Shown: positions 28,359 to 38,408, counted from the stretch's first letter. The stretch: 64,000 bases of DNA from Myxococcales bacterium (GCA_019634385.1 JAHQVK010000050.1:20072-84071), one strand, 5' to 3'. Translations and numbers: made by a program. The notes: generated from the letters alone by a model not told the origin.

Positions 28359-30560
28359 TCACCCATTATTTGTCGTCGCCTGGCGTGCCGCCTCAATTTT
28401 CGCTCGCGCACCTGGAGTGAGCGCACCCGCAACCACCTCAGCAATATCTAAGACCGGCATATCTTCATTCCCGTGGTGCTTTAGACCATCGCCGATCATC
28501 GTCTTACAGAAAGGACAACCAACCGCTACCGCCTGAGCTCCGGTGTCAATCGCCTGCTGGCTGCGCACGATGTTGACGCGAACGTCACCAGGCTCTTCTT
28601 CCTTCCACATTTGTGCTCCTCCCGCACCACAGCACAGCGATTTTCGGCCATGGTCTTCCATCTCAACCACCTGGAGACGCTTAACTGCCGCAAGGCTCCT
28701 GCGAGGTGCTTTCGTTTCATCGTTCCAGCGTCCGAGAAAACAAGGATCATGGAAAGTTACCTTGCTAAGTGTTCCCACATCTACATCTAATCGCCCCTCT
28801 TCGAGCAATTGACTTATGAGTTGTGAGTGGTGAAGTACTTCGTAGTCACCACCAAACGCTGGATACTCATTTTTTAGGGTATTAAAACAATGAGGACACG
28901 CAGTGACAATTTTTTTGACTCCGAGGTCATTCAGCGTCGCCACATTAGTCTGCGCTAAAGCATCAAACAGGTACTCATTTCCACCTCGACGAGCAGGATC
29001 CCCCGTGCATTGCTCGTTTTGCCCTAAAATAGCATAAGTAATACCACCGGCATCCAAAATATCAGCCAGGGCTCGTACTGACTTCTGTGCAGTAATGTCA
29101 AAGCTTCCCGCACAACCAACCCAGAACAAAAACTCATACTTACCCGCATCTTCGCTGCCACCCCAGTATCGCAAACCTAGTGACTGAGCCCAATCAGCAC
29201 GCTTATCTGCGCCGATACCCCAGGGATTATAGTTACGTTCAATATTCGTAAAAGTATTGTTCCACTCCGCGGACACTGCTCCCTCTGTGAGGGTCAAATA
29301 CCGCCGAAGATCCACAATCGCATCTACGTGATCGATCAAAACCGGACATGCTTCGACGCAGGCTCCACAATTCGTGCAGGCCCCCAGTACTTCACGAGAG
29401 GTCTGAACACCTTTCATTCGCCCCTCTTCGGTTTCAGCGATCAACGGAACTTCCGGCTCCCAGTCTGCCGGCGCTGCCGTCACTTCAAACAGACCTCGAT
29501 CTGCTAGTAGCTTATCACCGTTGAGATATAAATTACCACGGATATCATGAATGAGCTTCTGCGGATTCAGAGCCTTTCCGGTACGAGTAGCGGGACAATA
29601 TTTATTGCAACGCCCACACTCGGTGCAAGCATAAGTATCTAGGAGCGTCTTCCACGAAAAATCATTTACTTTACCTACCCCGAAACTCTCAGCATTCTCA
29701 TCTTCAAAATCCAGTCGACTAAGCGCAGCTTTGTGCTTTTCTCTTTTGTGAAGGAATATATTAGGAATAGCTCCCAGCAAGTGGATATGTTTGCTCTTGG
29801 GTATGACATTTAAGAAAGTAAGAAGCACAACCGCATGAGACCACCAAAAGATCTCGCTCAATACATATGCGAGCTTAACATTCATCCCCACAAAGAAGCT
29901 AGCGACCGTATTTGAAACTGTGATGGCTTTCGCATGACTTGTGACAAATGGATCTTTTCCAGCAATAGCAAAACCCATAGCACCAAAGTAGGTTATCATC
30001 ACCATCGCAATGAGGCTCAAAATAAGATATCCCTCTTTGCTGTCATAGTGGATATGGCTGGGGCGCAAGACCAAGCGTCGAAATAGTGCGGCCACCACTG
30101 CAAAAAGGACAACAAACGCCATGAAGTCTTCACCAGCAAGAATCAGGTGGTACAGACCATCCCCCAGAAAGGACAGACTAAAGCTAGGAACAACGCCGCG
30201 AACCAAAAATTCAATATGCCCCACGGTGATAATCAAGAAGCCCCAGAAGAAGATGACGTGATTCCACCCAAATTTCTCCTTCACAACTTTGCGCTGAAAG
30301 AAGACCAGATATATGACTGCACCGATACGGTCCGTAATATCCTTGATGGGATTCGACCGACTCTGCCCGAGAGCCATAAGACGGAACATGCGCCATACAG
30401 AATGAGCGAACAACCCCATCATAGCGACGAAAAAAACGCCGAACACAATGGGCTTTAGCACTGCGTACATCACTGCATTGGATACCGACACTTGTGGGTC
30501 TGACGCAATGTGATTAACCAGCAAGTATGCCGCAATTTCCATATCTCTGCGACTATGCAA
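28359..30560 (-). CDS. Membrane-anchored Fe-S oxidoreductase: polytopic N-terminal domain fused to a 2x[4Fe-4S] ferredoxin and an HdrD/GlpC-like CCG-domain module
   Basis: About 7 TM helices at the N-terminus. Ferredoxin motifs CTECGRCNKYCP and CTNCGACVEACP. Two CCG-type Cys-rich blocks including CCGAGG. 733 aa. Confidence 0.75.
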   Translation of the reverse strand: MHSRRDMEIAAYLLVNHIASDPQVSVSNAVMYAVLKPIVFGVFFVAMMGLFAHSVWRMFRLMALGQSRSNPIKDITDRIGAVIYLVFFQRKVVKEKFGWNHVIFFWGFLIITVGHIEFLVRGVVPSFSLSFLGDGLYHLILAGEDFMAFVVLFAVVAALFRRLVLRPSHIHYDSKEGYLILSLIAMVMITYFGAMGFAIAGKDPFVTSHAKAITVSNTVASFFVGMNVKLAYVLSEIFWWSHAVVLLTFLNVIPKSKHIHLLGAIPNIFLHKREKHKAALSRLDFEDENAESFGVGKVNDFSWKTLLDTYACTECGRCNKYCPATRTGKALNPQKLIHDIRGNLYLNGDKLLADRGLFEVTAAPADWEPEVPLIAETEEGRMKGVQTSREVLGACTNCGACVEACPVLIDHVDAIVDLRRYLTLTEGAVSAEWNNTFTNIERNYNPWGIGADKRADWAQSLGLRYWGGSEDAGKYEFLFWVGCAGSFDITAQKSVRALADILDAGGITYAILGQNEQCTGDPARRGGNEYLFDALAQTNVATLNDLGVKKIVTACPHCFNTLKNEYPAFGGDYEVLHHSQLISQLLEEGRLDVDVGTLSKVTFHDPCFLGRWNDETKAPRRSLAAVKRLQVVEMEDHGRKSLCCGAGGAQMWKEEEPGDVRVNIVRSQQAIDTGAQAVAVGCPFCKTMIGDGLKHHGNEDMPVLDIAEVVAGALTPGARAKIEAARQATTNNG

Positions 30561-30811
30561 CTGGCTCTAATCCGCACGACGCCGATTTTAATATGAATCG
30601 TGACTCAGCAAATCTCTAGCAGAGGATGTGGCTTTTCGTCGCCCCTCGACAAATCGGGCACAATCTGGAGACGGCAGGCACGTCCTGGGGACGACAAATG
30701 GTGAGCTAGCTTTGGGAACCCAATGCCAATGCCGCAATCTGGGCCAAGTTTCTTACAAGAGACCGTCAGGGAGAGCTTGACCAGCTCGCCAGTCCGTTCT
30801 ACGCGCCGCTA

Positions 30812-31804
30812 GTGGCGTCGCTAAGGGACCTTCGGAAACGATTAAAGGCGGTTAAAAACACCCAAAAAATCACAAAGGCTATGAAGATGGTGGCCGCCTC
30901 CAAATTGAGGCGAGCCCAGCAACAGGTGATTCAGGCCCGACCGTACGCCATAGGGATGCAAGAAGTCCTTGAGCACATTATGTCCCACGCCGATGTGGCT
31001 GGACACCCGCTACTCCAAGCGCGAGTGCCCCAGCGGATCGAGTTGTTGGTGTTGTCTTCCAATCGCGGTCTCTGCGGAAGCTTCAATTCCAGCATCATCC
31101 GTGCCACTGAACGCTACATAGCCGACCATCAAGGCCAGTACGAAGAAATTCTTATGTCCACGATCGGTCGCAAGGTCGCGGATCACTTTCGACGAAAGAA
31201 TTGGTCGCTCATTGACCAGTTTGACACCGCTTGGGACGACCTTCGCTTTGAACAGGCCCAGGACATCGCCACTCATCTTGCAAATCGATTTCAGAGTGGA
31301 CGCTTAGATGGTGTTTTCTTGGTCTACAATGAGTTCAAAAGTGCCATTGCCCAAAACGTGGTTCTTGCTCAGTTGCTCCCAATTCAACCCCTCGACGATT
31401 GGGATAACAACCCGGCAGTACGGGTCGGTGAACTGGAGGCTTTTTCTGGCGATGCGCGAGCGGTAGCTGGTCTGTCCACCAAAGCGGAGATTAACCTTCC
31501 TGCTAGCTGGCAAGTGTCCCCAGCACTTTCGATTGAAACCGAGGGCTATGAGCACCGCTTTGAACCCAGCCGGGCTGAGGTCTTGGATAGTTTGCTACCA
31601 CAGCATCTGGCGGTCCAAATCTGGCGGGCAATGCTCGAATCTACCGCTGCTGAGCACGGAGCTCGAATGTCTGCGATGGATGCCGCATCAACCAACGCCA
31701 AGGAGCTCATCGAAAAGATCACCTTACAAGCAAACCGTCTTCGCCAAGCGGGTATCACCAGCGAACTCATGGAAATTGTATCTGGCGCGGAAGCTCTCCG
31801 CTGA
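30812..31804 (+). CDS. atpG: F-type ATP synthase gamma subunit
   Basis: GTG start. MASLRDLRKRLKAVKNTQKITKAMKMVAASKLRRAQ is the gamma-subunit N-terminal signature. The C-terminal helix is conserved. No other atp genes are adjacent. Confidence 0.85.
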   Translation: MASLRDLRKRLKAVKNTQKITKAMKMVAASKLRRAQQQVIQARPYAIGMQEVLEHIMSHADVAGHPLLQARVPQRIELLVLSSNRGLCGSFNSSIIRATERYIADHQGQYEEILMSTIGRKVADHFRRKNWSLIDQFDTAWDDLRFEQAQDIATHLANRFQSGRLDGVFLVYNEFKSAIAQNVVLAQLLPIQPLDDWDNNPAVRVGELEAFSGDARAVAGLSTKAEINLPASWQVSPALSIETEGYEHRFEPSRAEVLDSLLPQHLAVQIWRAMLESTAAEHGARMSAMDAASTNAKELIEKITLQANRLRQAGITSELMEIVSGAEALR

Positions 31805-31896
31805 CACGAGCAGCAAGGCTCGCGCGTAGCGCTAGGCTCTACCAACAACCATATTCGCGGCTTGATCCGGCCTTGACCTCACCCCTTTACAACCGA

Positions 31897-32805
31897 TCAT
31901 GCGGGCGCGCTTGAGGCAGTGCGTTGCCGCTGGCCAGTGCGCCACGAATGCCGCCTTCGGCCTCGCCGCTGACGGGACGCCAGCCAAGCTCCCGCAGCCG
32001 GGTCGCGTCGAGGGCCGCATCCATCCATCGCGAGGAACGCGGCCAGCGGCCCGTTGGCTTCGTTCGCCTCTGACAGCGAGCGATGTCGTACGGGCACGCT
32101 CACCGCTTCGGCGATGGCCGTCCAGATCCCGACCATTGGCTCCGGCTCGAGCTCCGCGGCATGAAAAACACCGCGGGCCTCAGATTCGGCGAGCAGGACG
32201 TACGCATCGGCGAGGTCGCGTACATGCACGGTCGACCACCGATTCTCCCCGCCGTCGATAACATACGCGGCGCCCGTCGATGCTCCCTGCACCATGCGCG
32301 CGACCGGGCCACCGCCGTCGCCGTAGACGATCGGGGGTCGAACGACGACGCCTCGAACGGAGCGGGCGGCGAGCACCCGTTCCTCGGCGTGGGCAAGCCA
32401 ATCCAGCGGCCCCCCGAGCGGTGCAACATCGGACTCGACGACCGGAACACGGCTACTCCTCGCCCGCGGTGCTCCGCTGGTTGTTACGAATACCCCGCCT
32501 TCCATGCTCGCCAACATTGCTGTCACTGCAGCTTCGTCGATTGCCGCCCGCTGAGGTCCGGGGTCCGCGGCCGTGTGCACGACTCCATCGCCTCGTGCCA
32601 CGACCGCTGCGAGCACGGCGACGTCGGTCAAGCTCGCCTCGACGGGCGTGCCCCCGGCCGCGCGAACGACTTCCGCTGCGTGTGCAGAGCGAGCGAGGCC
32701 TCGCACCCGGTGCCCTCGTTTGACGAGCGCACGCGTCACCGCAGAGCCGATGTAGCCACTGGCTCCCGTGACGAACAGGTCCAAGGCTCCTTGATCGGCT
32801 GTGAC
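31897..32805 (-). CDS. NmrA-like / atypical SDR NAD(P)-binding oxidoreductase (in high-GC island)
   Basis: Rossmann motif VTGASGYIGSAVTRALVKRGHRVRGLARS. The region is about 70% GC against about 54% in the flanks. Start approximate: a GTG near aa 164 of the 465-aa ORF, whose upstream part runs into the neighbouring gene in a different frame. Confidence 0.6.
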   Translation of the reverse strand, partial: VTADQGALDLFVTGASGYIGSAVTRALVKRGHRVRGLARSAHAAEVVRAAGGTPVEASLTDVAVLAAVVARGDGVVHTAADPGPQRAAIDEAAVTAMLASMEGGVFVTTSGAPRARSSRVPVVESDVAPLGGPLDWLAHAEERVLAARSVRGVVVRPPIVYGDGGGPVARMVQGASTGAAYVIDGGENRWSTVHVRDLADAYVLLAESEARGVFHAAELEPEPMVGIWTAIAEAVSVPVRHRSLSEANEANGPLAAFLAMDGCGPRRDPAAGAWLASRQRRGRRRHSWRTGQRQRTASSAPA

Positions 32806-33016
32806 GTGGAAGACGACAGCCCCGGCCGGGGGCCTACGACGAAGACGCGGAACTCGGCCTCGAGGATGAGGGGGGAGGACGCTCTCGTCATCGACGATGC
32901 CGTGCTGGGGGCCATTGCTGGCGCCCCCACGTTGGCCGTCAAAGACGTCGAGACACTGTTCGCGGAGAACGAGCCGACCCCTAACTAGCTGACCATAACA
33001 GGCACACCCTAGGAGG

Positions 33017-33898
33017 CTACAAAAGGGATAGTTGAGCTCGATCGGAGGATGTTGGACGCAGTGGCCAGTCGGGCAGAGGGGCCATTTCGGGCATGACTTG
33101 GCACAGATGCTCATGAAACCGCCGGGCCAACCACGGAGCGTGGTGATCGTCCGGGGTATGACAATAAAAAAACGGTGATCGTCCCTCCCTAATCCAAATG
33201 GCCACCGTCTCTGCCCACTCACGTAAGAATGGATCACATTCTTCCACCTGATTACGACCGATAAACCGGACCAGCGGGTGCTGACCGAGTGCAATCTTTC
33301 TCACTGGAACCCGCGGTTTACGGGACTGTGCTTCCGCCGTGCTTGGATCCTTGGGAGGCAATGAAAATAGGGGGCGGCTATCAAAGCACACCCGTTCCAC
33401 GCCAAAATGGGTCAACAAACGGTGGAGATCCCTCTCGTTGTTCCCTTGGTCAAACCAATCAACATGCCGAAGCTCAACGGCTAGTGGACGGTCTTGGGGC
33501 CAGTGTTCCAAAAAGTGGCGAACCCGTCGCCCTGCTGATCGGCCCGCTGATGGGGGAAGCTGTAGCATGCAGGGCCCAAGACAAGACCCAAGCGGAGATA
33601 ACACCTCTAGGAACCTCGATAGGTCTGCTTCATAAAACTGGAGTGCCTTTTCATGGGTGATTGTCCGCGGCAACTTAAAGGCAAATCGAAAATGGTCAGG
33701 GATCTCCGCCTTCCACTTCGCGACCGTGGTTAGAGACGGCAAAGCATAGAAGGTGCTGTTACCCTCTACAGTGGAAAAGAGCTGCGTATATGCCGAAAGC
33801 TGCCGACTGGCGGTCGTATGGGGAGGCAAAACCGCCCCCACCCAGCTTCGTGTCGCAAACACCGGGCATCCCAAGCGATAGAGTGGCGCGTAAGTCAC
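33017..33898 (-). CDS. DUF72 (YecE-like) family protein
   Basis: The VEGNSTFYALP motif and overall pattern match DUF72. 293 aa. Confidence 0.75.
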   Translation of the reverse strand: MTYAPLYRLGCPVFATRSWVGAVLPPHTTASRQLSAYTQLFSTVEGNSTFYALPSLTTVAKWKAEIPDHFRFAFKLPRTITHEKALQFYEADLSRFLEVLSPLGSCLGPCMLQLPPSAGRSAGRRVRHFLEHWPQDRPLAVELRHVDWFDQGNNERDLHRLLTHFGVERVCFDSRPLFSLPPKDPSTAEAQSRKPRVPVRKIALGQHPLVRFIGRNQVEECDPFLREWAETVAIWIREGRSPFFYCHTPDDHHAPWLARRFHEHLCQVMPEMAPLPDWPLRPTSSDRAQLSLL

Positions 33899-34099
33899 CT
33901 CCCCATAGTCCGTGGTTTCTTGGGCAATTGCATCTCTGCCTCGGTTGTAACCTCCTCAATTCGGTCAACGATAGCGGTAAGCCCCAAGGCACTCACATGT
34001 CCAACGGCTCCCCACCGGATCACGATGAATCGGTGGTGCTCGCAGCACTCGCTATCGACTTTATCTAACCGCGGATCGCACGATGCCCATTACACTCCG

Positions 34100-37000
34100 A
34101 TGAGTGTACTCTGGGCGGCTATCATCCTCTCATCTATCCCCTACGGGCAAACTCCCGATGAGCTAGATATTCTCCGAAACCGAGACACAACCCCTCAAAT
34201 CCAGCTTCTTTTGGATTCTTCATGTTCGATGGGCTGGGACCCGGCCCCAAGTATCTGTGATGACTACCCCAATCGACAATCTAATATGATCGGAAGTTAT
34301 TGGAATTCAGGTTGGTATCTATCGCGGGTTGACCAACTCAAAGCCGCCCTCACTGGTTGTAAAAATAGTCGCGATGGAATTTTAGATACCTGGGACGGTC
34401 GGGTGCTCTTTTCCATCCGGGAATTTGGTGGCAGTAGAACTGGGCTCCTCTCACCATTTGACCCAAATTTTGACAACCTCCCTGCTTTAGAAAGTGCGGT
34501 CATGAACCTGCCCGCCTCGGGCGGAACACCTTTAGCGCCCGGGTACTTAAAATCAGCACAATACTTTGACAGCTTTTTTAACAACAGCAACAGCTACCAG
34601 TGTCGTCACAACTACATTGTAGTCATGTCCGACGGCGTCGGAAACCATCATGCACCAGTGAACTTCGATTTTATCTCTGGGCAGTCATCGGTAAGTGTTC
34701 GCGACGCAAATAGTTGTTTCGGTACTACATATGATTGGTGTCCCTCTCCTCCTTATCTGGATGAAGCCGCTCGTTATCTATACGAGGACGCCAACGGGGA
34801 GGAGGTTGATGCCTTATCCAAGGTGGACGGCGTTCAACCGATTCGTACCTATACCATCGGATTTCAGGCACCCACTGCTGCTGATGCTTTGCTACAAGCG
34901 ATGGCCATCGAAGGTGATGGTAAAGCATTCTCCGCATCAAGCTACAGTCAGCTGGTCCAAGCCTTCGTCGAAATTATTGACAACATCATAGCCCGATCTC
35001 GCGTGGCTTTTAATACCGGTGTAATCCAAACTTCTGGCCTATTTGCTAGCAATTTTACCTACAGCTCATCGTTTCGACCTAGTGCAGAAGGTCACTGGCC
35101 AGGTACAACCAAAAAATACTGTGTGATCCCTGACGCGAACTACAGCGATTGTCTGTTTATCAATGGTAGTGATGGGCTCGAGATCAATCCTAATCCCCGA
35201 GACATTTGGACCGGAGATAAGTCATCGAATGCCGATCAAGGTGGAACCGGAGAAGTCATAATCAAAGATATTTTCCGGGTAAATAATAACAAAAGCTCCC
35301 CACCCAGTTCCCCACTAACTAAACGTACTATCCTTACATGGAGACCCGAACACTTTGGGTATGTAGCTGTTGATCCTCAGATATTATCTGGACAAGAGAC
35401 GTGGACAAGCAACGACTGTGAACGATATTCTCTCCTGACTCATCTTCATGGCTTTACTGAGGATCTTGCAGATTGTGACAACGCAAATTATCAACCACTA
35501 GCGCTCGACAGATGGCCCATTGGTGCTTCCATTCATAGTGAACCCGTACTTCTTCAGTACACCTCAACGTGTGAGAATACGGGAGATAAATGCTTTGTGG
35601 TCACCGCCGCCAACGATGGCATGTTACACTTCTACAACGCGGTGACCGGCCGAGAAACCTCAGCCATTATTCCCGCTGAATTTTGGAGACCCAACACCAT
35701 TGCCCACCACACGCTTGCGGAGCGGAGCAAGCAACCATTCCACACCACTTCACATCGTTACTATTTAGATGGTGGCCTGCGCCTTCACCACTTTGACACC
35801 AACACGGACGGGACCATCAGCTCCGGCGAGAATGCATATTTGATCGTAGGTCTTGGTCGCGGAGGACGGGCATATTACCTCATGGACGTCAGTGCCTTCT
35901 CGGGAGTACCCAGTACACGATACAACCCCATTCGCCCGCTCATCGCTGATGAAGCATCCGGTTTACAAGATCTCCGCGACACCTGGGCCACTCCGTGGAC
36001 AGGGTACCTTCAGGCTTCCTCAAGCAAGCAACAGCTTATTGCGGTATTTCCAAGTGGGCACATCCCTGAGCTCGATGAGCCAGATGCCCCCTTCGCCAAC
36101 TATCCACTAGCGGCGCCAACCACATCCGCCGACAACGAACAATCACCTCATACAATCAGTTGCGAGGATGCCGGTATACCGGCTGAAATCTGCACCACCC
36201 CTAACCCCGCAACGTTCTGTGATGAGTTGGGACTATCCTGTAGCAGCAGCAGTAGATGCAGTCCATGTAACGAACCCGATGCCGCACAATGTATCGCGGC
36301 TGGGCTCCAACCCCCATATTGTTACGACTGGCCAGGCCTCAACGCGGTCGGCACTCAGATCTGGACCCAAATTCCCCTGAATGTAGTGGCCGGCCCCAAT
36401 CGGTACGAGACCATCAACCACAAGGCAAATGCTTTCCGCATTAAGTTCTCGAGATTTGATCTTCAACCTGGAGACTATATATCCATTCAAAATAGTCATC
36501 AGGATGAGGTAGCCCGTCTCCAGGGTAGTTACGACACCAATCTACCAGTATCTCCGTGGATCTACGATGATAGCTTCAGTTTTCACTTTGTCTCTGATGG
36601 AGAAAACAATAGCTCCGCTCAAGGATATACCATTTCCGAAGTAGAAGTCCTGCGCGACCAAACCCCTCCAAGTCCGCACAAGCAACATCATCCTTCGATA
36701 TATATCGTTGATCTCCTCAAATGGAATCAGGACAAAGACCTTAGCCCCCCATATGTAAGTACCGATCCCGGCCTCTTTGCGGCTGCTCCAACCGGAGCAA
36801 AGACCAATCACGCAGATGGTATACGAGTGCGAATAACCTCCCATTGCACCGGACATATCGGGAAAAACGAAATCTGCATCGACCAAACAACATCTAGTGA
36901 CACCAAAGATTTAAAGTGGATGTCTTGTCCGATCAGCGCCACTCCCACCGTATTTTCTGAGGCGGGTAATCTAAGATCAATATATATCGGCGACGAATGT

Positions 37001-37765
37001 GGTCAAATATGGACTGCGAAGGTTGACCTCACTGGAACCTGGAAGGTGCGGCGGCTACTCCGTCTCAACAACGCTGATGGAGATGGCCAGGTCATAGCCG
37101 GCGCCAAATCCCAAGACTACCGCAAAATCTTTAGTCGGCTAGATCTTGTTATATCGACCTGTCCCGGCCGACGTGCCTTTGGTGTGTATTTCGGCTCAGG
37201 TAACGTACAACGTGCAGCAGCTAACAACGCACTGCAGGATCCGAGTATCACCAATGGCCACGAGGTCATTGGGGTGGTTTGGGATACGGCTAGTCTACCT
37301 GATGATGCCAATCTCGACGATCTTGTGAACGTTACCGATGCATTTAAAGTAGACCCAAGAGCATCAGGGAATGAACATGGATGGTTTATCGAACTGGAAT
37401 CCGGTGAACGTATGCTCCGAGCCCCATTGGTTTTTGATGGGCTTGCACACTTCGACGTCTTTCAGCCGGTAATCAGTCCTACTGAATGCACCTCAGCCGT
37501 TGGTCAAAGCCGCACCCTTATCATGGATAATTGCACCGCTGAGCCGCTCAGAACACCAGCCGGATCCAGTCCTAGCGACGCCCGTACCGTAGCGGTCCGC
37601 AAGGATTCCAACATTGGGGGCGGTTTTATGCTCTATTCTCGTGCTGGGAAAGAAGCCATCATATCCCTCGGTCAGGAAGGTGAAGGCAAAGCAGCCCTAC
37701 CAACTATGAAGAACCGCCCTCTGGTTCGATTGTTCCTGTGGCGCCCATTCCGTGCTACAGATTGA
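34100..37765 (+). CDS. pilY1: PilY1-like type IV pilus tip-associated adhesin (N-terminal vWA domain and C-terminal PilY1 beta-propeller)
   Basis: Signal peptide MSVLWAAIILSSIP. vWA MIDAS motif LLLDSSCSMG ... YTIGF. C-terminal PilY1 motifs RGGRAYYLMDVS and SIYIGDECGQIWTAKVDL. Start set at the internal ATG. The upstream part of the 1315-aa ORF overlaps the DUF72 gene. Confidence 0.75.
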   Translation: MSVLWAAIILSSIPYGQTPDELDILRNRDTTPQIQLLLDSSCSMGWDPAPSICDDYPNRQSNMIGSYWNSGWYLSRVDQLKAALTGCKNSRDGILDTWDGRVLFSIREFGGSRTGLLSPFDPNFDNLPALESAVMNLPASGGTPLAPGYLKSAQYFDSFFNNSNSYQCRHNYIVVMSDGVGNHHAPVNFDFISGQSSVSVRDANSCFGTTYDWCPSPPYLDEAARYLYEDANGEEVDALSKVDGVQPIRTYTIGFQAPTAADALLQAMAIEGDGKAFSASSYSQLVQAFVEIIDNIIARSRVAFNTGVIQTSGLFASNFTYSSSFRPSAEGHWPGTTKKYCVIPDANYSDCLFINGSDGLEINPNPRDIWTGDKSSNADQGGTGEVIIKDIFRVNNNKSSPPSSPLTKRTILTWRPEHFGYVAVDPQILSGQETWTSNDCERYSLLTHLHGFTEDLADCDNANYQPLALDRWPIGASIHSEPVLLQYTSTCENTGDKCFVVTAANDGMLHFYNAVTGRETSAIIPAEFWRPNTIAHHTLAERSKQPFHTTSHRYYLDGGLRLHHFDTNTDGTISSGENAYLIVGLGRGGRAYYLMDVSAFSGVPSTRYNPIRPLIADEASGLQDLRDTWATPWTGYLQASSSKQQLIAVFPSGHIPELDEPDAPFANYPLAAPTTSADNEQSPHTISCEDAGIPAEICTTPNPATFCDELGLSCSSSSRCSPCNEPDAAQCIAAGLQPPYCYDWPGLNAVGTQIWTQIPLNVVAGPNRYETINHKANAFRIKFSRFDLQPGDYISIQNSHQDEVARLQGSYDTNLPVSPWIYDDSFSFHFVSDGENNSSAQGYTISEVEVLRDQTPPSPHKQHHPSIYIVDLLKWNQDKDLSPPYVSTDPGLFAAAPTGAKTNHADGIRVRITSHCTGHIGKNEICIDQTTSSDTKDLKWMSCPISATPTVFSEAGNLRSIYIGDECGQIWTAKVDLTGTWKVRRLLRLNNADGDGQVIAGAKSQDYRKIFSRLDLVISTCPGRRAFGVYFGSGNVQRAAANNALQDPSITNGHEVIGVVWDTASLPDDANLDDLVNVTDAFKVDPRASGNEHGWFIELESGERMLRAPLVFDGLAHFDVFQPVISPTECTSAVGQSRTLIMDNCTAEPLRTPAGSSPSDARTVAVRKDSNIGGGFMLYSRAGKEAIISLGQEGEGKAALPTMKNRPLVRLFLWRPFRATD

Positions 37766-37771
37766 GGATAC

Positions 37772-38251
37772 TTGTTCATGAACCCATACACACTCTTGCC
37801 TCTCCAACGGATGGTCATTAGCAGCGCACTCATGAGCTTGATCACTATCTCTGTACCAGTCAGTGCAGCTCCGGATGTATCCAAAACATTGCCAACACGC
37901 ACCTCCTCAACATCTCGAAAGCACCTGAAACGAGTTGTTGCGAGTCAGCCTGGCACCTATGATACCAACCGATTCACAGCACACGGCATCCTGCAAAGAG
38001 GTCCGGACGACTCTTACATACTCGTACGTCCGATTTCGCTGAAGAGCCGAACCCAAACCGCTCTCGCTCAACGAGTTTCTCTACAAAGAATACCCCATAT
38101 CCATGCACGTCAGGTGCTACGCGCACCCAATGGACCAAAACCTGAGGAACTGGAGCAACTAGTCAGCGAACACGTTTCTGCCATCCTTATCCGGGACCGC
38201 TCTGGTCACTACTTTCTTCGCTCTGTCACCCTATTTTCCTTAGGCAAGTAG
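37772..38251 (+). CDS. Small secreted hypothetical protein, immediately downstream of pilY1
   Basis: 159 aa with an N-terminal signal peptide. It has no prepilin GFTLIE motif, so it is not an obvious minor pilin. Confidence 0.4.
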   Translation: MFMNPYTLLPLQRMVISSALMSLITISVPVSAAPDVSKTLPTRTSSTSRKHLKRVVASQPGTYDTNRFTAHGILQRGPDDSYILVRPISLKSRTQTALAQRVSLQRIPHIHARQVLRAPNGPKPEELEQLVSEHVSAILIRDRSGHYFLRSVTLFSLGK

Positions 38252-38295
38252 GTAAGAAACGGCTTGTACTTGCACCTCTCCCTTCTCAGTTCCGT

Positions 38296-38408
38296 AAAGC
38301 AAAGACCACCTGAATTGATTCCGTTAGAATCAACAAGGGGTCGCGCAGCGGGGCATTGCACCGTGGAGAAGCTGGAACTTGGGTTCCAGCCAAGTTCTTT
38401 CTGCTGTA
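38296..38408 (+). repeat. MITE-like structured repeat, copy B (full length)
   Basis: aAAGCAAAGaccacctgaattgattccgttagaatcaa...cgcagcggggcattgc...ggaacttgggttccagccaagtt...TCTGCTGTa. Same three-hairpin architecture as copies A, D and E. Confidence 0.8.

Follow-up and report, generated by a model that had tools for sequence, protein, structure and literature searches.

A single-gene GC-rich islet between atpG and a DUF72 gene in a Myxococcota genome: a probably transferred and frameshifted SDR gene

In a 64,000-nucleotide stretch of DNA from a Myxococcales bacterium (GCA_019634385.1, JAHQVK010000050.1:20072-84071; the whole stretch is referred to as the window), a segment at 31805-33016 lies between atpG, encoding ATP synthase gamma, and a DUF72 gene, and carries a minus-strand gene of the short-chain dehydrogenase/reductase (SDR) superfamily. 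We consider it likely, with a probability of about 0.85, that this segment arose by a single-gene horizontal transfer from a donor of higher guanine-plus-cytosine (GC) content into the atpG/DUF72 spacer, and that the SDR gene was later frameshifted to a young pseudogene.

A GC-rich insertion between convergent atpG and DUF72 genes

The segment stands apart from its surroundings in base composition. GC content across 31850-33000 is 0.679, against an average of 0.519 in the other 1150-bp windows (standard deviation 0.024, maximum 0.579; z = 6.6), and in a 300-bp profile it stays at 0.65-0.71 across approximately 31800-33000, with 0.50-0.58 on either side. It is the sole GC outlier in the 64 kb, every other 1-kb window being at or below 0.58. 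The GC jump that the original prediction, made from the sequence alone, had placed at 31850-33000 is thus borne out, with 67.9% inside and 52% on both sides. In 50-bp windows, GC rises at about 31895, adjoining the SDR stop codon, and drops at about 32975-32990, where a short open reading frame (ORF) of the plus strand ends. Long overlapping ORFs occupy both strands, as had also been described; those of the minus strand measure 465, 116 and 100 aa, and those of the plus strand 301, 147 and 120 aa. The 301-aa plus-strand ORF lies in the same codon register as the SDR gene, and its GC content at the three codon positions (GC1/2/3) is the mirror image of that of the SDR gene; these ORFs represent the usual shadow-ORF effect of GC-rich coding DNA.

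To place the segment in context, relatives were located by an atpG search and their contigs were retrieved for synteny; an earlier scan of genome contigs with the DUF72 protein as the query had found no close relatives. In one relative (L004; atpG 81% identical, locus GC 50.2%), the order is an Hdr-like gene, atpG, DUF72 and a PilY1-like gene, with atpG and DUF72 convergent and overlapping by 4 bp. In a second (L003; atpG 77% identical, locus GC 52.8%, on a 6.0-Mb contig), the two genes are likewise convergent, with a 10-bp gap, and are followed by a large protein in the PilY1 position. The SDR gene is absent from both, so that atpG directly adjoins DUF72 in the two nearest relatives, whereas 1212 bp separate the two stop codons in the window. 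Because atpG and DUF72 abut in L003 and L004, the entire segment that lies between their stops in the window (31805-33016, 67.7% GC) is a lineage-specific insertion. The island first delimited at 31850-33000 is therefore genuine but was drawn slightly too narrow. Both flanking genes have host composition and an intact C-terminus. Pfam agrees with the identities originally assigned to them, namely atpG at 30812-31804 on the plus strand (PF00231, 321 bits) and DUF72 at 33017-33898 on the minus strand (PF01904, 195 bits). The atpG product ends in ...SGAEALR, in agreement with the relatives, and the DUF72 product ends in ...QLSLL, where the relatives have ...QLHLL and ...QLGLF.

By pairwise identity, the window and L004 form the closest pair in all four shared proteins (atpG, DUF72, PilY1-like and Hdr-like), giving the grouping ((window, L004), L003). 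As the window is nearest to L004 and the island is absent from both L004 and L003, one gain is more parsimonious than two losses. We regard it as highly improbable that the SDR gene is instead an ancestral resident, its high GC kept by unusual selection or biased gene conversion and the gene deleted independently in the relatives. Such a history would draw on two more distant loci, L005 and L006 (atpG approximately 72-73% identical), which keep the surrounding synteny at 69% GC, so that the wider clade has not always been low in GC, and on the variability of the slot downstream of atpG. This slot holds DUF72 in the window, L003 and L004, and a DUF2256/DUF3253 gene together with an FAD amine-oxidase gene in place of DUF72 in L005 (9094-10487) and L006 (7451-8844); in neither of the latter does it hold the SDR gene. 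An ancestral origin would moreover require two independent and precise deletions joining the stop codons in L003 and L004, would leave unexplained how only 1.2 kb of 64 kb escaped a genome-wide shift to 52% GC, and would have to extend to the non-coding 200 bp upstream, which are high in GC as well. No homologue from low-GC relatives is found among the matches, and the best homologues are not those of close relatives with the same gene context and a similar GC content, an outcome that had been named beforehand as the mark of an ancestral gene.

The junctions themselves appear to be real. The atpG and SDR proteins match NCBI entries MBX2810912.1 and MBX2810913.1 from a metagenome-assembled genome (MAG) named 'Myxococcales bacterium', on a 159-kb contig. 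As the source is metagenome-assembled and high-GC myxobacteria could share the sample, a chimera with reads of a co-occurring high-GC organism has to be considered. However, a contig from a second pipeline (Logan, run SRR12681089; L002, 9487 bp) aligns to window positions 28867-38345 at 99.8% identity, spanning the Hdr-like gene, atpG, the whole island and DUF72, and reaching into the PilY1-like gene, so that both junctions are present in one contig of 9.5 kb. It differs from the window by nine substitutions, four of them in or beside the island (31896, 32718, 32939 and 32941), and by one 8-bp tandem duplication. A chimera would also need two artificial joins that exactly spare both flanking stop codons. 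Since two different assemblers reproduce both junctions on slightly different strains, a chimeric origin is improbable in the extreme.

The SDR gene, its relatives and its native context

As read now, the SDR ORF runs from a TTG start at 32784 down to 31897 on the minus strand and encodes 295 aa, the last 41 of them out of frame. At its N-terminus, the protein reads (M)DLFVTGASGYIGS, in alignment with the homologue starts MDIF, MDVF and MNLF. The TTG start was not counted as evidence of decay, since a non-ATG start is found in at least one orthologue as well (Actinosynnema, L011). The product carries the N-terminal Rossmann motif TGASGYIGS (TGxxGxxG type) and matches the Pfam families Epimerase (PF01370; 68.2 bits, cut-off 20.9) and NAD_binding_10 (52.4 bits, cut-off 27.2). 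The motif quoted in the original prediction, VTGASGYIGSAVTRALVKRGHRVRGL, is found in this ORF. Of the NmrA/SDR-like label given there, the SDR part stands, while the NmrA part is only weakly justified, as residues 4-73 alone align to the NmrA model (PF05368; 37.4 bits, cut-off 27; model positions 6-78 of 298).

A search of 5.8 billion proteins places the best non-self homologue in a Nannocystales MAG (P0002; 77% amino acid identity, 97% query coverage), followed by about 15 Sorangium strains at 65-68%, by actinomycetes (Streptomyces, Streptosporangium, Actinoplanes, Actinokineospora and Saccharothrix) at about 59-67% and by Nannocystis at 59-60%. The same search returned no homologue from the host's own low-GC relatives, and a sampled GTDB scan gave the same picture. 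Judged from identity rankings and a relative-rate count, the gene thus shows an affinity, at the level of sequence, to these lineages.

Codon composition points in the same direction. With its frame repaired, the SDR gene has a GC content of 0.69 and GC1/2/3 of 0.78/0.56/0.73, close to those of the Nannocystales orthologue (0.68 and 0.74/0.57/0.72, in a locus of 65.9% GC); GC3 is 0.92-0.95 in the Sorangium and JGI orthologues and 0.42-0.58 among the window's 28 host ORFs that reach 300 aa or more. The elevated GC1 and GC2 stem from a protein rich in Ala, Gly, Arg and Val, that is, a long history in a GC-rich genome. In synonymous codon usage, the SDR gene lies at a distance of 1.27 from the pooled host genes, beyond all 41 size-matched host chunks (mean 0.88, standard deviation 0.13, maximum 1.17), and at 1.13 from the pooled Nannocystales genes, inside that pool's own range. 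Composition and codon usage, homologue affinity and synteny had been put forward as checks along with the original prediction, and all three agree with a foreign origin.

The likeliest donor is probably a moderately high-GC myxobacterium of Nannocystales type, with about 66% GC and from the host's own phylum, as suggested by these sequence comparisons. With no donor closer than 77% at the amino acid level, the donor taxon is only approximate, and actinomycete-like or unsampled high-GC lineages could also have supplied the gene. Of the earlier proposal of a recent acquisition from an actinomycete or a high-GC myxobacterium, the recent high-GC transfer and the myxobacterial type of donor hold up, and an actinomycete donor appears less likely. 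A donor in the host's own phylum may even be phylogenetically near, as the host's clade shows a large GC shift. Among loci that have their local synteny in common and are 72-81% identical in atpG, GC content varies by almost 20 points (52% in the window, 52.8% in L003 and 50.2% in L004 versus 69% in L005 and L006), showing that this uncultured Myxococcota clade underwent a large compositional shift.

In its native hosts, the SDR gene appears to have a constant partner. A gene combining Cupin_6 and HTH_18 (AraC-family) domains lies divergently upstream of the SDR orthologue, 92-380 bp away, in all three contexts inspected, namely Nannocystales (L001, 8947-10870), Sorangium (L007, 2973-4882) and a JGI metagenome contig (L008, 2593-4876). 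No such regulator is present at the window island, where the upstream DNA is dissimilar to the three regulators by BLASTP. The SDR family may therefore be regulated by an AraC-type sensor in its native hosts, and the Cupin_6/AraC-SDR pair of Sorangium, Nannocystales and actinomycetes, an uncharacterised two-gene module, may deserve study there.

NCBIfam, PDB sequence and fold searches suggest no specific function beyond the extended-SDR fold. The model of the orthologue superposes on the structures of GalE, RmlB, cinnamoyl-CoA reductase and Gox2253 with template modelling (TM) scores of approximately 0.7-0.78 at 16-23% identity. Profile searches of PDB and NCBIfam give distant extended-SDR matches only, with 3wj7 at 2e-15 and OleD (NCBIfam) at 57 bits against a cut-off of 580. 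The catalytic Tyr-x3-Lys is lacking; in the alignment with 3wj7, a Leu stands opposite the Tyr, and the Lys is lost to a deletion. A segment GPLxWLAxAExRVL, with Leu/Trp at the Tyr-x3-Lys segment, is conserved across the orthologue group, and since the whole group lacks Tyr-x3-Lys, the protein belongs to the atypical SDRs.

The frameshift, the insertion ends and a likely course of events

A 4-bp tandem duplication (32021-32028, minus strand; ATGG ATGG on the coding strand) shifts the frame of the SDR gene, as judged by comparison with its orthologues. Aligned at the DNA level with its Nannocystales orthologue, the window copy has four additional bases; at this site the window and L002 have GCG ATG GAT GGA TGC, against GCx ATG GAC GCx GCx (A-M-D-A-A) in five orthologue DNAs. 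Deletion of 4 nt restores FLAMDAALDATRLRELGWRP and agreement with the family consensus, and the repaired reading, ...FLAMDAALDATRLRELGWRPVSGEAEGGIRGAL..., follows that consensus to a TAA stop at 31887-31889. The original 3' end, now out of frame (31887-32020, minus strand), encodes AALDATRLRELGWRPVSGEAEGGIRGALASGNALPQARPHDRL. The present ORF (P0121) departs from all homologues after ...FLAMD, where the frame is lost after residue 254, and continues with 41 unrelated Arg-rich residues to its end at 31897. This 295-aa product is identical to the deposited MBX2810913.1, annotated as an intact NAD-dependent epimerase/dehydratase; in other gene calls (P0001 and P0122, 405 aa), the ORF reaches upstream into DUF72. 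The same 1.2 kb holds another small slipped-strand event, namely the 8-bp tandem duplication of L002 (GGCCTTGA GGCCTTGA) at 31869 in the left spacer, which the window lacks.

The segment lost to the frameshift carries residues that are nearly invariant in the orthologue alignment. In the AlphaFold model of the orthologue (P0002; overall predicted local distance difference test score, pLDDT, 94.6), this segment is helical at 260-263, 271-274 and 277-284, with a pLDDT of approximately 88-98 ahead of a disordered extreme terminus. The C-terminal, substrate-binding part of the two-domain fold is thus incomplete in the window SDR, and its product is predicted from the model to be destabilised or inactive.

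It is nevertheless conceivable, though rather unlikely, that the transfer is real and the SDR gene intact and in use, the duplication being an artefact or the altered C-terminus being tolerated, with the gene adaptive and expressed through DUF72 read-through or from the 200 bp upstream of it. In favour of this alternative, the SDR is conserved up to residue 254 with no excess of substitutions, an AAGGAG motif lies just upstream of its TTG start, SDR and DUF72 are co-oriented with no terminator-like site between them, and the NCBI annotation treats the SDR as an intact protein. However, the duplication occurs in two independently assembled contigs that differ by nine single-nucleotide polymorphisms (SNPs), short-read sequencing does not typically produce duplications of four bases, the replaced segment holds nearly invariant residues and structured helices, and the cognate regulator is missing.

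Within the frameshift reading, the decay appears young. A relative-rate count gives seven lineage-specific substitutions in the window copy versus 19 in the Nannocystales copy (p = 0.02), a skew in the direction opposite to decay, and the part now out of frame still matches the consensus once its frame is repaired. As there is no excess of substitutions and the consensus is kept out of frame, the frameshift, and probably the transfer too, look recent. A metagenome scan that covered the frameshift site both with the 4-bp duplication and without it returned no match, and hence neither an intact allele nor a closer donor.

The remainder of the insertion consists of three pieces outside the SDR gene. 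The left spacer, from the atpG stop to the original SDR stop (31805-31886), has 61% GC, and the right spacer, from the end of the high-GC DNA to the DUF72 stop (32989-33016), has 57%. Between the SDR start and the right spacer lie 204 bp at 66% GC (32785-32988), which include a 40-aa plus-strand ORF from an ATG at 32866 to a TAG ending at 32988, with coding-like GC1/2/3 of 0.68/0.42/0.83. This ORF was considered as a truncated N-terminus of an AraC regulator and rejected, the best BLASTP hit against three regulators having E = 0.048 and falling in an internal region. When 1.84 billion representatives were searched exhaustively by HMMER, the 67-aa plus-strand translation of 32785-32985 had no credible homologue. 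Its sole match, P0243 (E = 8e-8), is a 1282-aa protein with nine near-identical repeats of a 42-residue TPR-like unit. Each repeat is matched, at 37% identity, by one and the same stretch of 29 residues, so that one weak similarity enters the score nine times, and the match was rejected. In tblastx and blastn searches against 88 fetched loci, both end pieces gave compositional noise only. The simplest reading of the 204 bp is donor intergenic DNA with a scrap of a neighbouring gene.

No mobility gene is present. Pfam and gene content reveal no mobile-element gene within approximately 10 kb of the island, and no flanking direct repeats are found at its edges, as originally described for integrase and direct repeats; flanking inverted repeats are limited to short imperfect matches like those throughout the GC-rich insert. 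The island contains no tRNA or other RNA family, a permissive Rfam search giving one chance-level miRNA match, and it has no terminator-like site and one promoter-like site at chance level. We therefore consider it quite unlikely that the segment is the remnant of a mobile element, such as an integrative islet, a transposon or a carrier resembling a miniature inverted-repeat transposable element (MITE), with its mobility functions since deleted. Such an element could account for the 204-bp upstream piece and the 82-bp left spacer, which the SDR gene does not, and would be in keeping with a weak 12-nt inverted match (10/12) between 31795-31806 and 32957-32968 and with the 8-bp duplication polymorphism near the left edge. 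Yet there is no integrase, transposase, tRNA or flanking direct repeat, the inverted match is at chance level, since 1.45 kb of GC-rich DNA contain 35 pairs of this kind, itself included, and none of the fetched loci holds a homologue of the end pieces. There is likewise only a slender chance that the SDR with its Arg-rich tail or the upstream ORF of 40-65 codons has gained a function in the new host, or that the exact position between two abutting convergent stop codons goes back to an undescribed mechanism that targets insertions to terminators or gene ends, in place of random illegitimate recombination.

Under the horizontal-transfer reading that we prefer, a Myxococcota host of approximately 52% GC would have received about 1.1-1.2 kb from a bacterium of higher GC content, the most probable candidate being a Nannocystales-like myxobacterium with about 66% GC. 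This fragment may have entered the near-zero spacer of the convergent atpG and DUF72 genes by illegitimate, non-site-specific recombination, which would have left both flanking genes undamaged. Its cargo would have been one complete extended-SDR gene without the canonical Tyr-x3-Lys, together with about 200 bp of its upstream region, the divergent Cupin_6/AraC regulator of donor-type genomes being left behind. After the transfer, a slipped-strand duplication of 4 bp would have shifted the SDR frame, replacing the conserved and structured last 40 or so residues by an Arg-rich nonsense tail. The SDR gene would now most likely be a young pseudogene that has presumably lost its function, a neutral passenger headed for loss rather than an adaptive acquisition.

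Several points weigh against this account. The nearest sequence to the SDR in the databases searched is only 77% identical at the amino acid level, and the relatives used for synteny are fairly distant (77-81% in atpG, 57-64% in the PilY1-like protein). The codon usage of the SDR is not dramatically far from that of the host (1.27 versus a maximum of 1.17), a modest distance that could reflect partial amelioration or a donor of moderate GC. The 204 bp upstream of the SDR, with their coding-like periodicity, do not follow from this account, and 'recent' is bounded by composition alone. The frameshift is seen in two short-read assemblies, possibly from the same or related samples, and a truncated or altered SDR protein could retain some activity.

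Neighbouring genes and known systems compared

Besides atpG and DUF72, the genes within approximately 10 kb are of housekeeping type and encode MnmA, a phosphoribosyltransferase, an M23 peptidase, SurE, an Hdr-like protein, MatE and fasciclin-domain proteins. The atpG gene is solitary in the window and the four related loci L003-L006, with no adjoining atpA or atpD; its neighbours are an Hdr-like CCG/4Fe-4S protein (or a kinase and an LptF/G-like gene) on one side and DUF72 or other genes on the other. The atpG protein of approximately 330 aa exceeds the 285-position Pfam model, which indicates a clade insertion of roughly 40 residues. The large PilY1-like ORF (33818-37765, plus strand) shows a weak PF05567 match of 26 bits, below the cut-off, and overlaps the DUF72 5' end by 81 bp when read from its first ATG; other assemblies call this protein at 1221-1258 aa, and its true start is probably about 280 bp downstream of the first ATG. 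A conserved, unannotated gene of approximately 155-160 aa follows the PilY1-like ORF in every relative.

As a protein, the window SDR resembles the NAD-dependent epimerase/dehydratase family (PF01370) in its TGASGYIGS motif and in Pfam scores above the gathering cut-offs. Within this family, it is 59-77% identical to an orthologue group from Nannocystales, Sorangium, Nannocystis and many actinomycetes that is paired with the Cupin_6/AraC gene, and the orthologue model superposes on GalE- and RmlB-type structures at a TM score of approximately 0.75. It differs in that the whole orthologue group lacks Tyr-x3-Lys, and in that the window copy has also lost about 40 C-terminal residues and its regulator. 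In common with the NmrA-like family (PF05368), it has a Rossmann fold, is an atypical SDR-like protein and lacks the canonical catalytic pair. However, the NmrA match covers the generic dinucleotide-binding part, Epimerase and NAD_binding_10 score higher, and the structural neighbours are GalE, RmlB and cinnamoyl-CoA reductase rather than NmrA.

As a piece of DNA, the insertion shares foreign composition and lineage-specific presence with classical genomic islands and integrative elements, which are tRNA-associated and carry an integrase and direct repeats; unlike these, it measures 1.2 kb, holds a single gene and has no integrase, tRNA target or flanking repeats. In the Lawrence-Ochman picture, compositionally atypical single-gene 'islets' are foreign DNA that has not yet ameliorated, and early pseudogenisation is typical of acquired genes that bring no benefit. 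The island matches such horizontally acquired islets in its sharp break in GC and codon-position composition, in its absence from the syntenic site in relatives and in having its nearest homologues in another lineage of matching composition. It differs from them in nothing essential, its particular features being a donor that is probably from the same phylum and an insertion exactly between convergent stop codons.

The island is thus an ordinary, well-supported single-gene islet of horizontal gene transfer (HGT), whose SDR gene has probably been inactivated already, as the comparison with its orthologues suggests. To what was originally predicted, our analysis adds a probable Nannocystales-like donor, the SDR frameshift and the missing regulator. 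For the databases, MBX2810913.1 carries 41 spurious C-terminal residues and is to be flagged as frameshifted. The island leaves the current understanding of HGT unchanged, and it offers a clean, well-bounded textbook case of a foreign gene placed to the base pair between convergent genes, an SDR islet caught broken but not yet ameliorated, with a plausible donor lineage in the same phylum.

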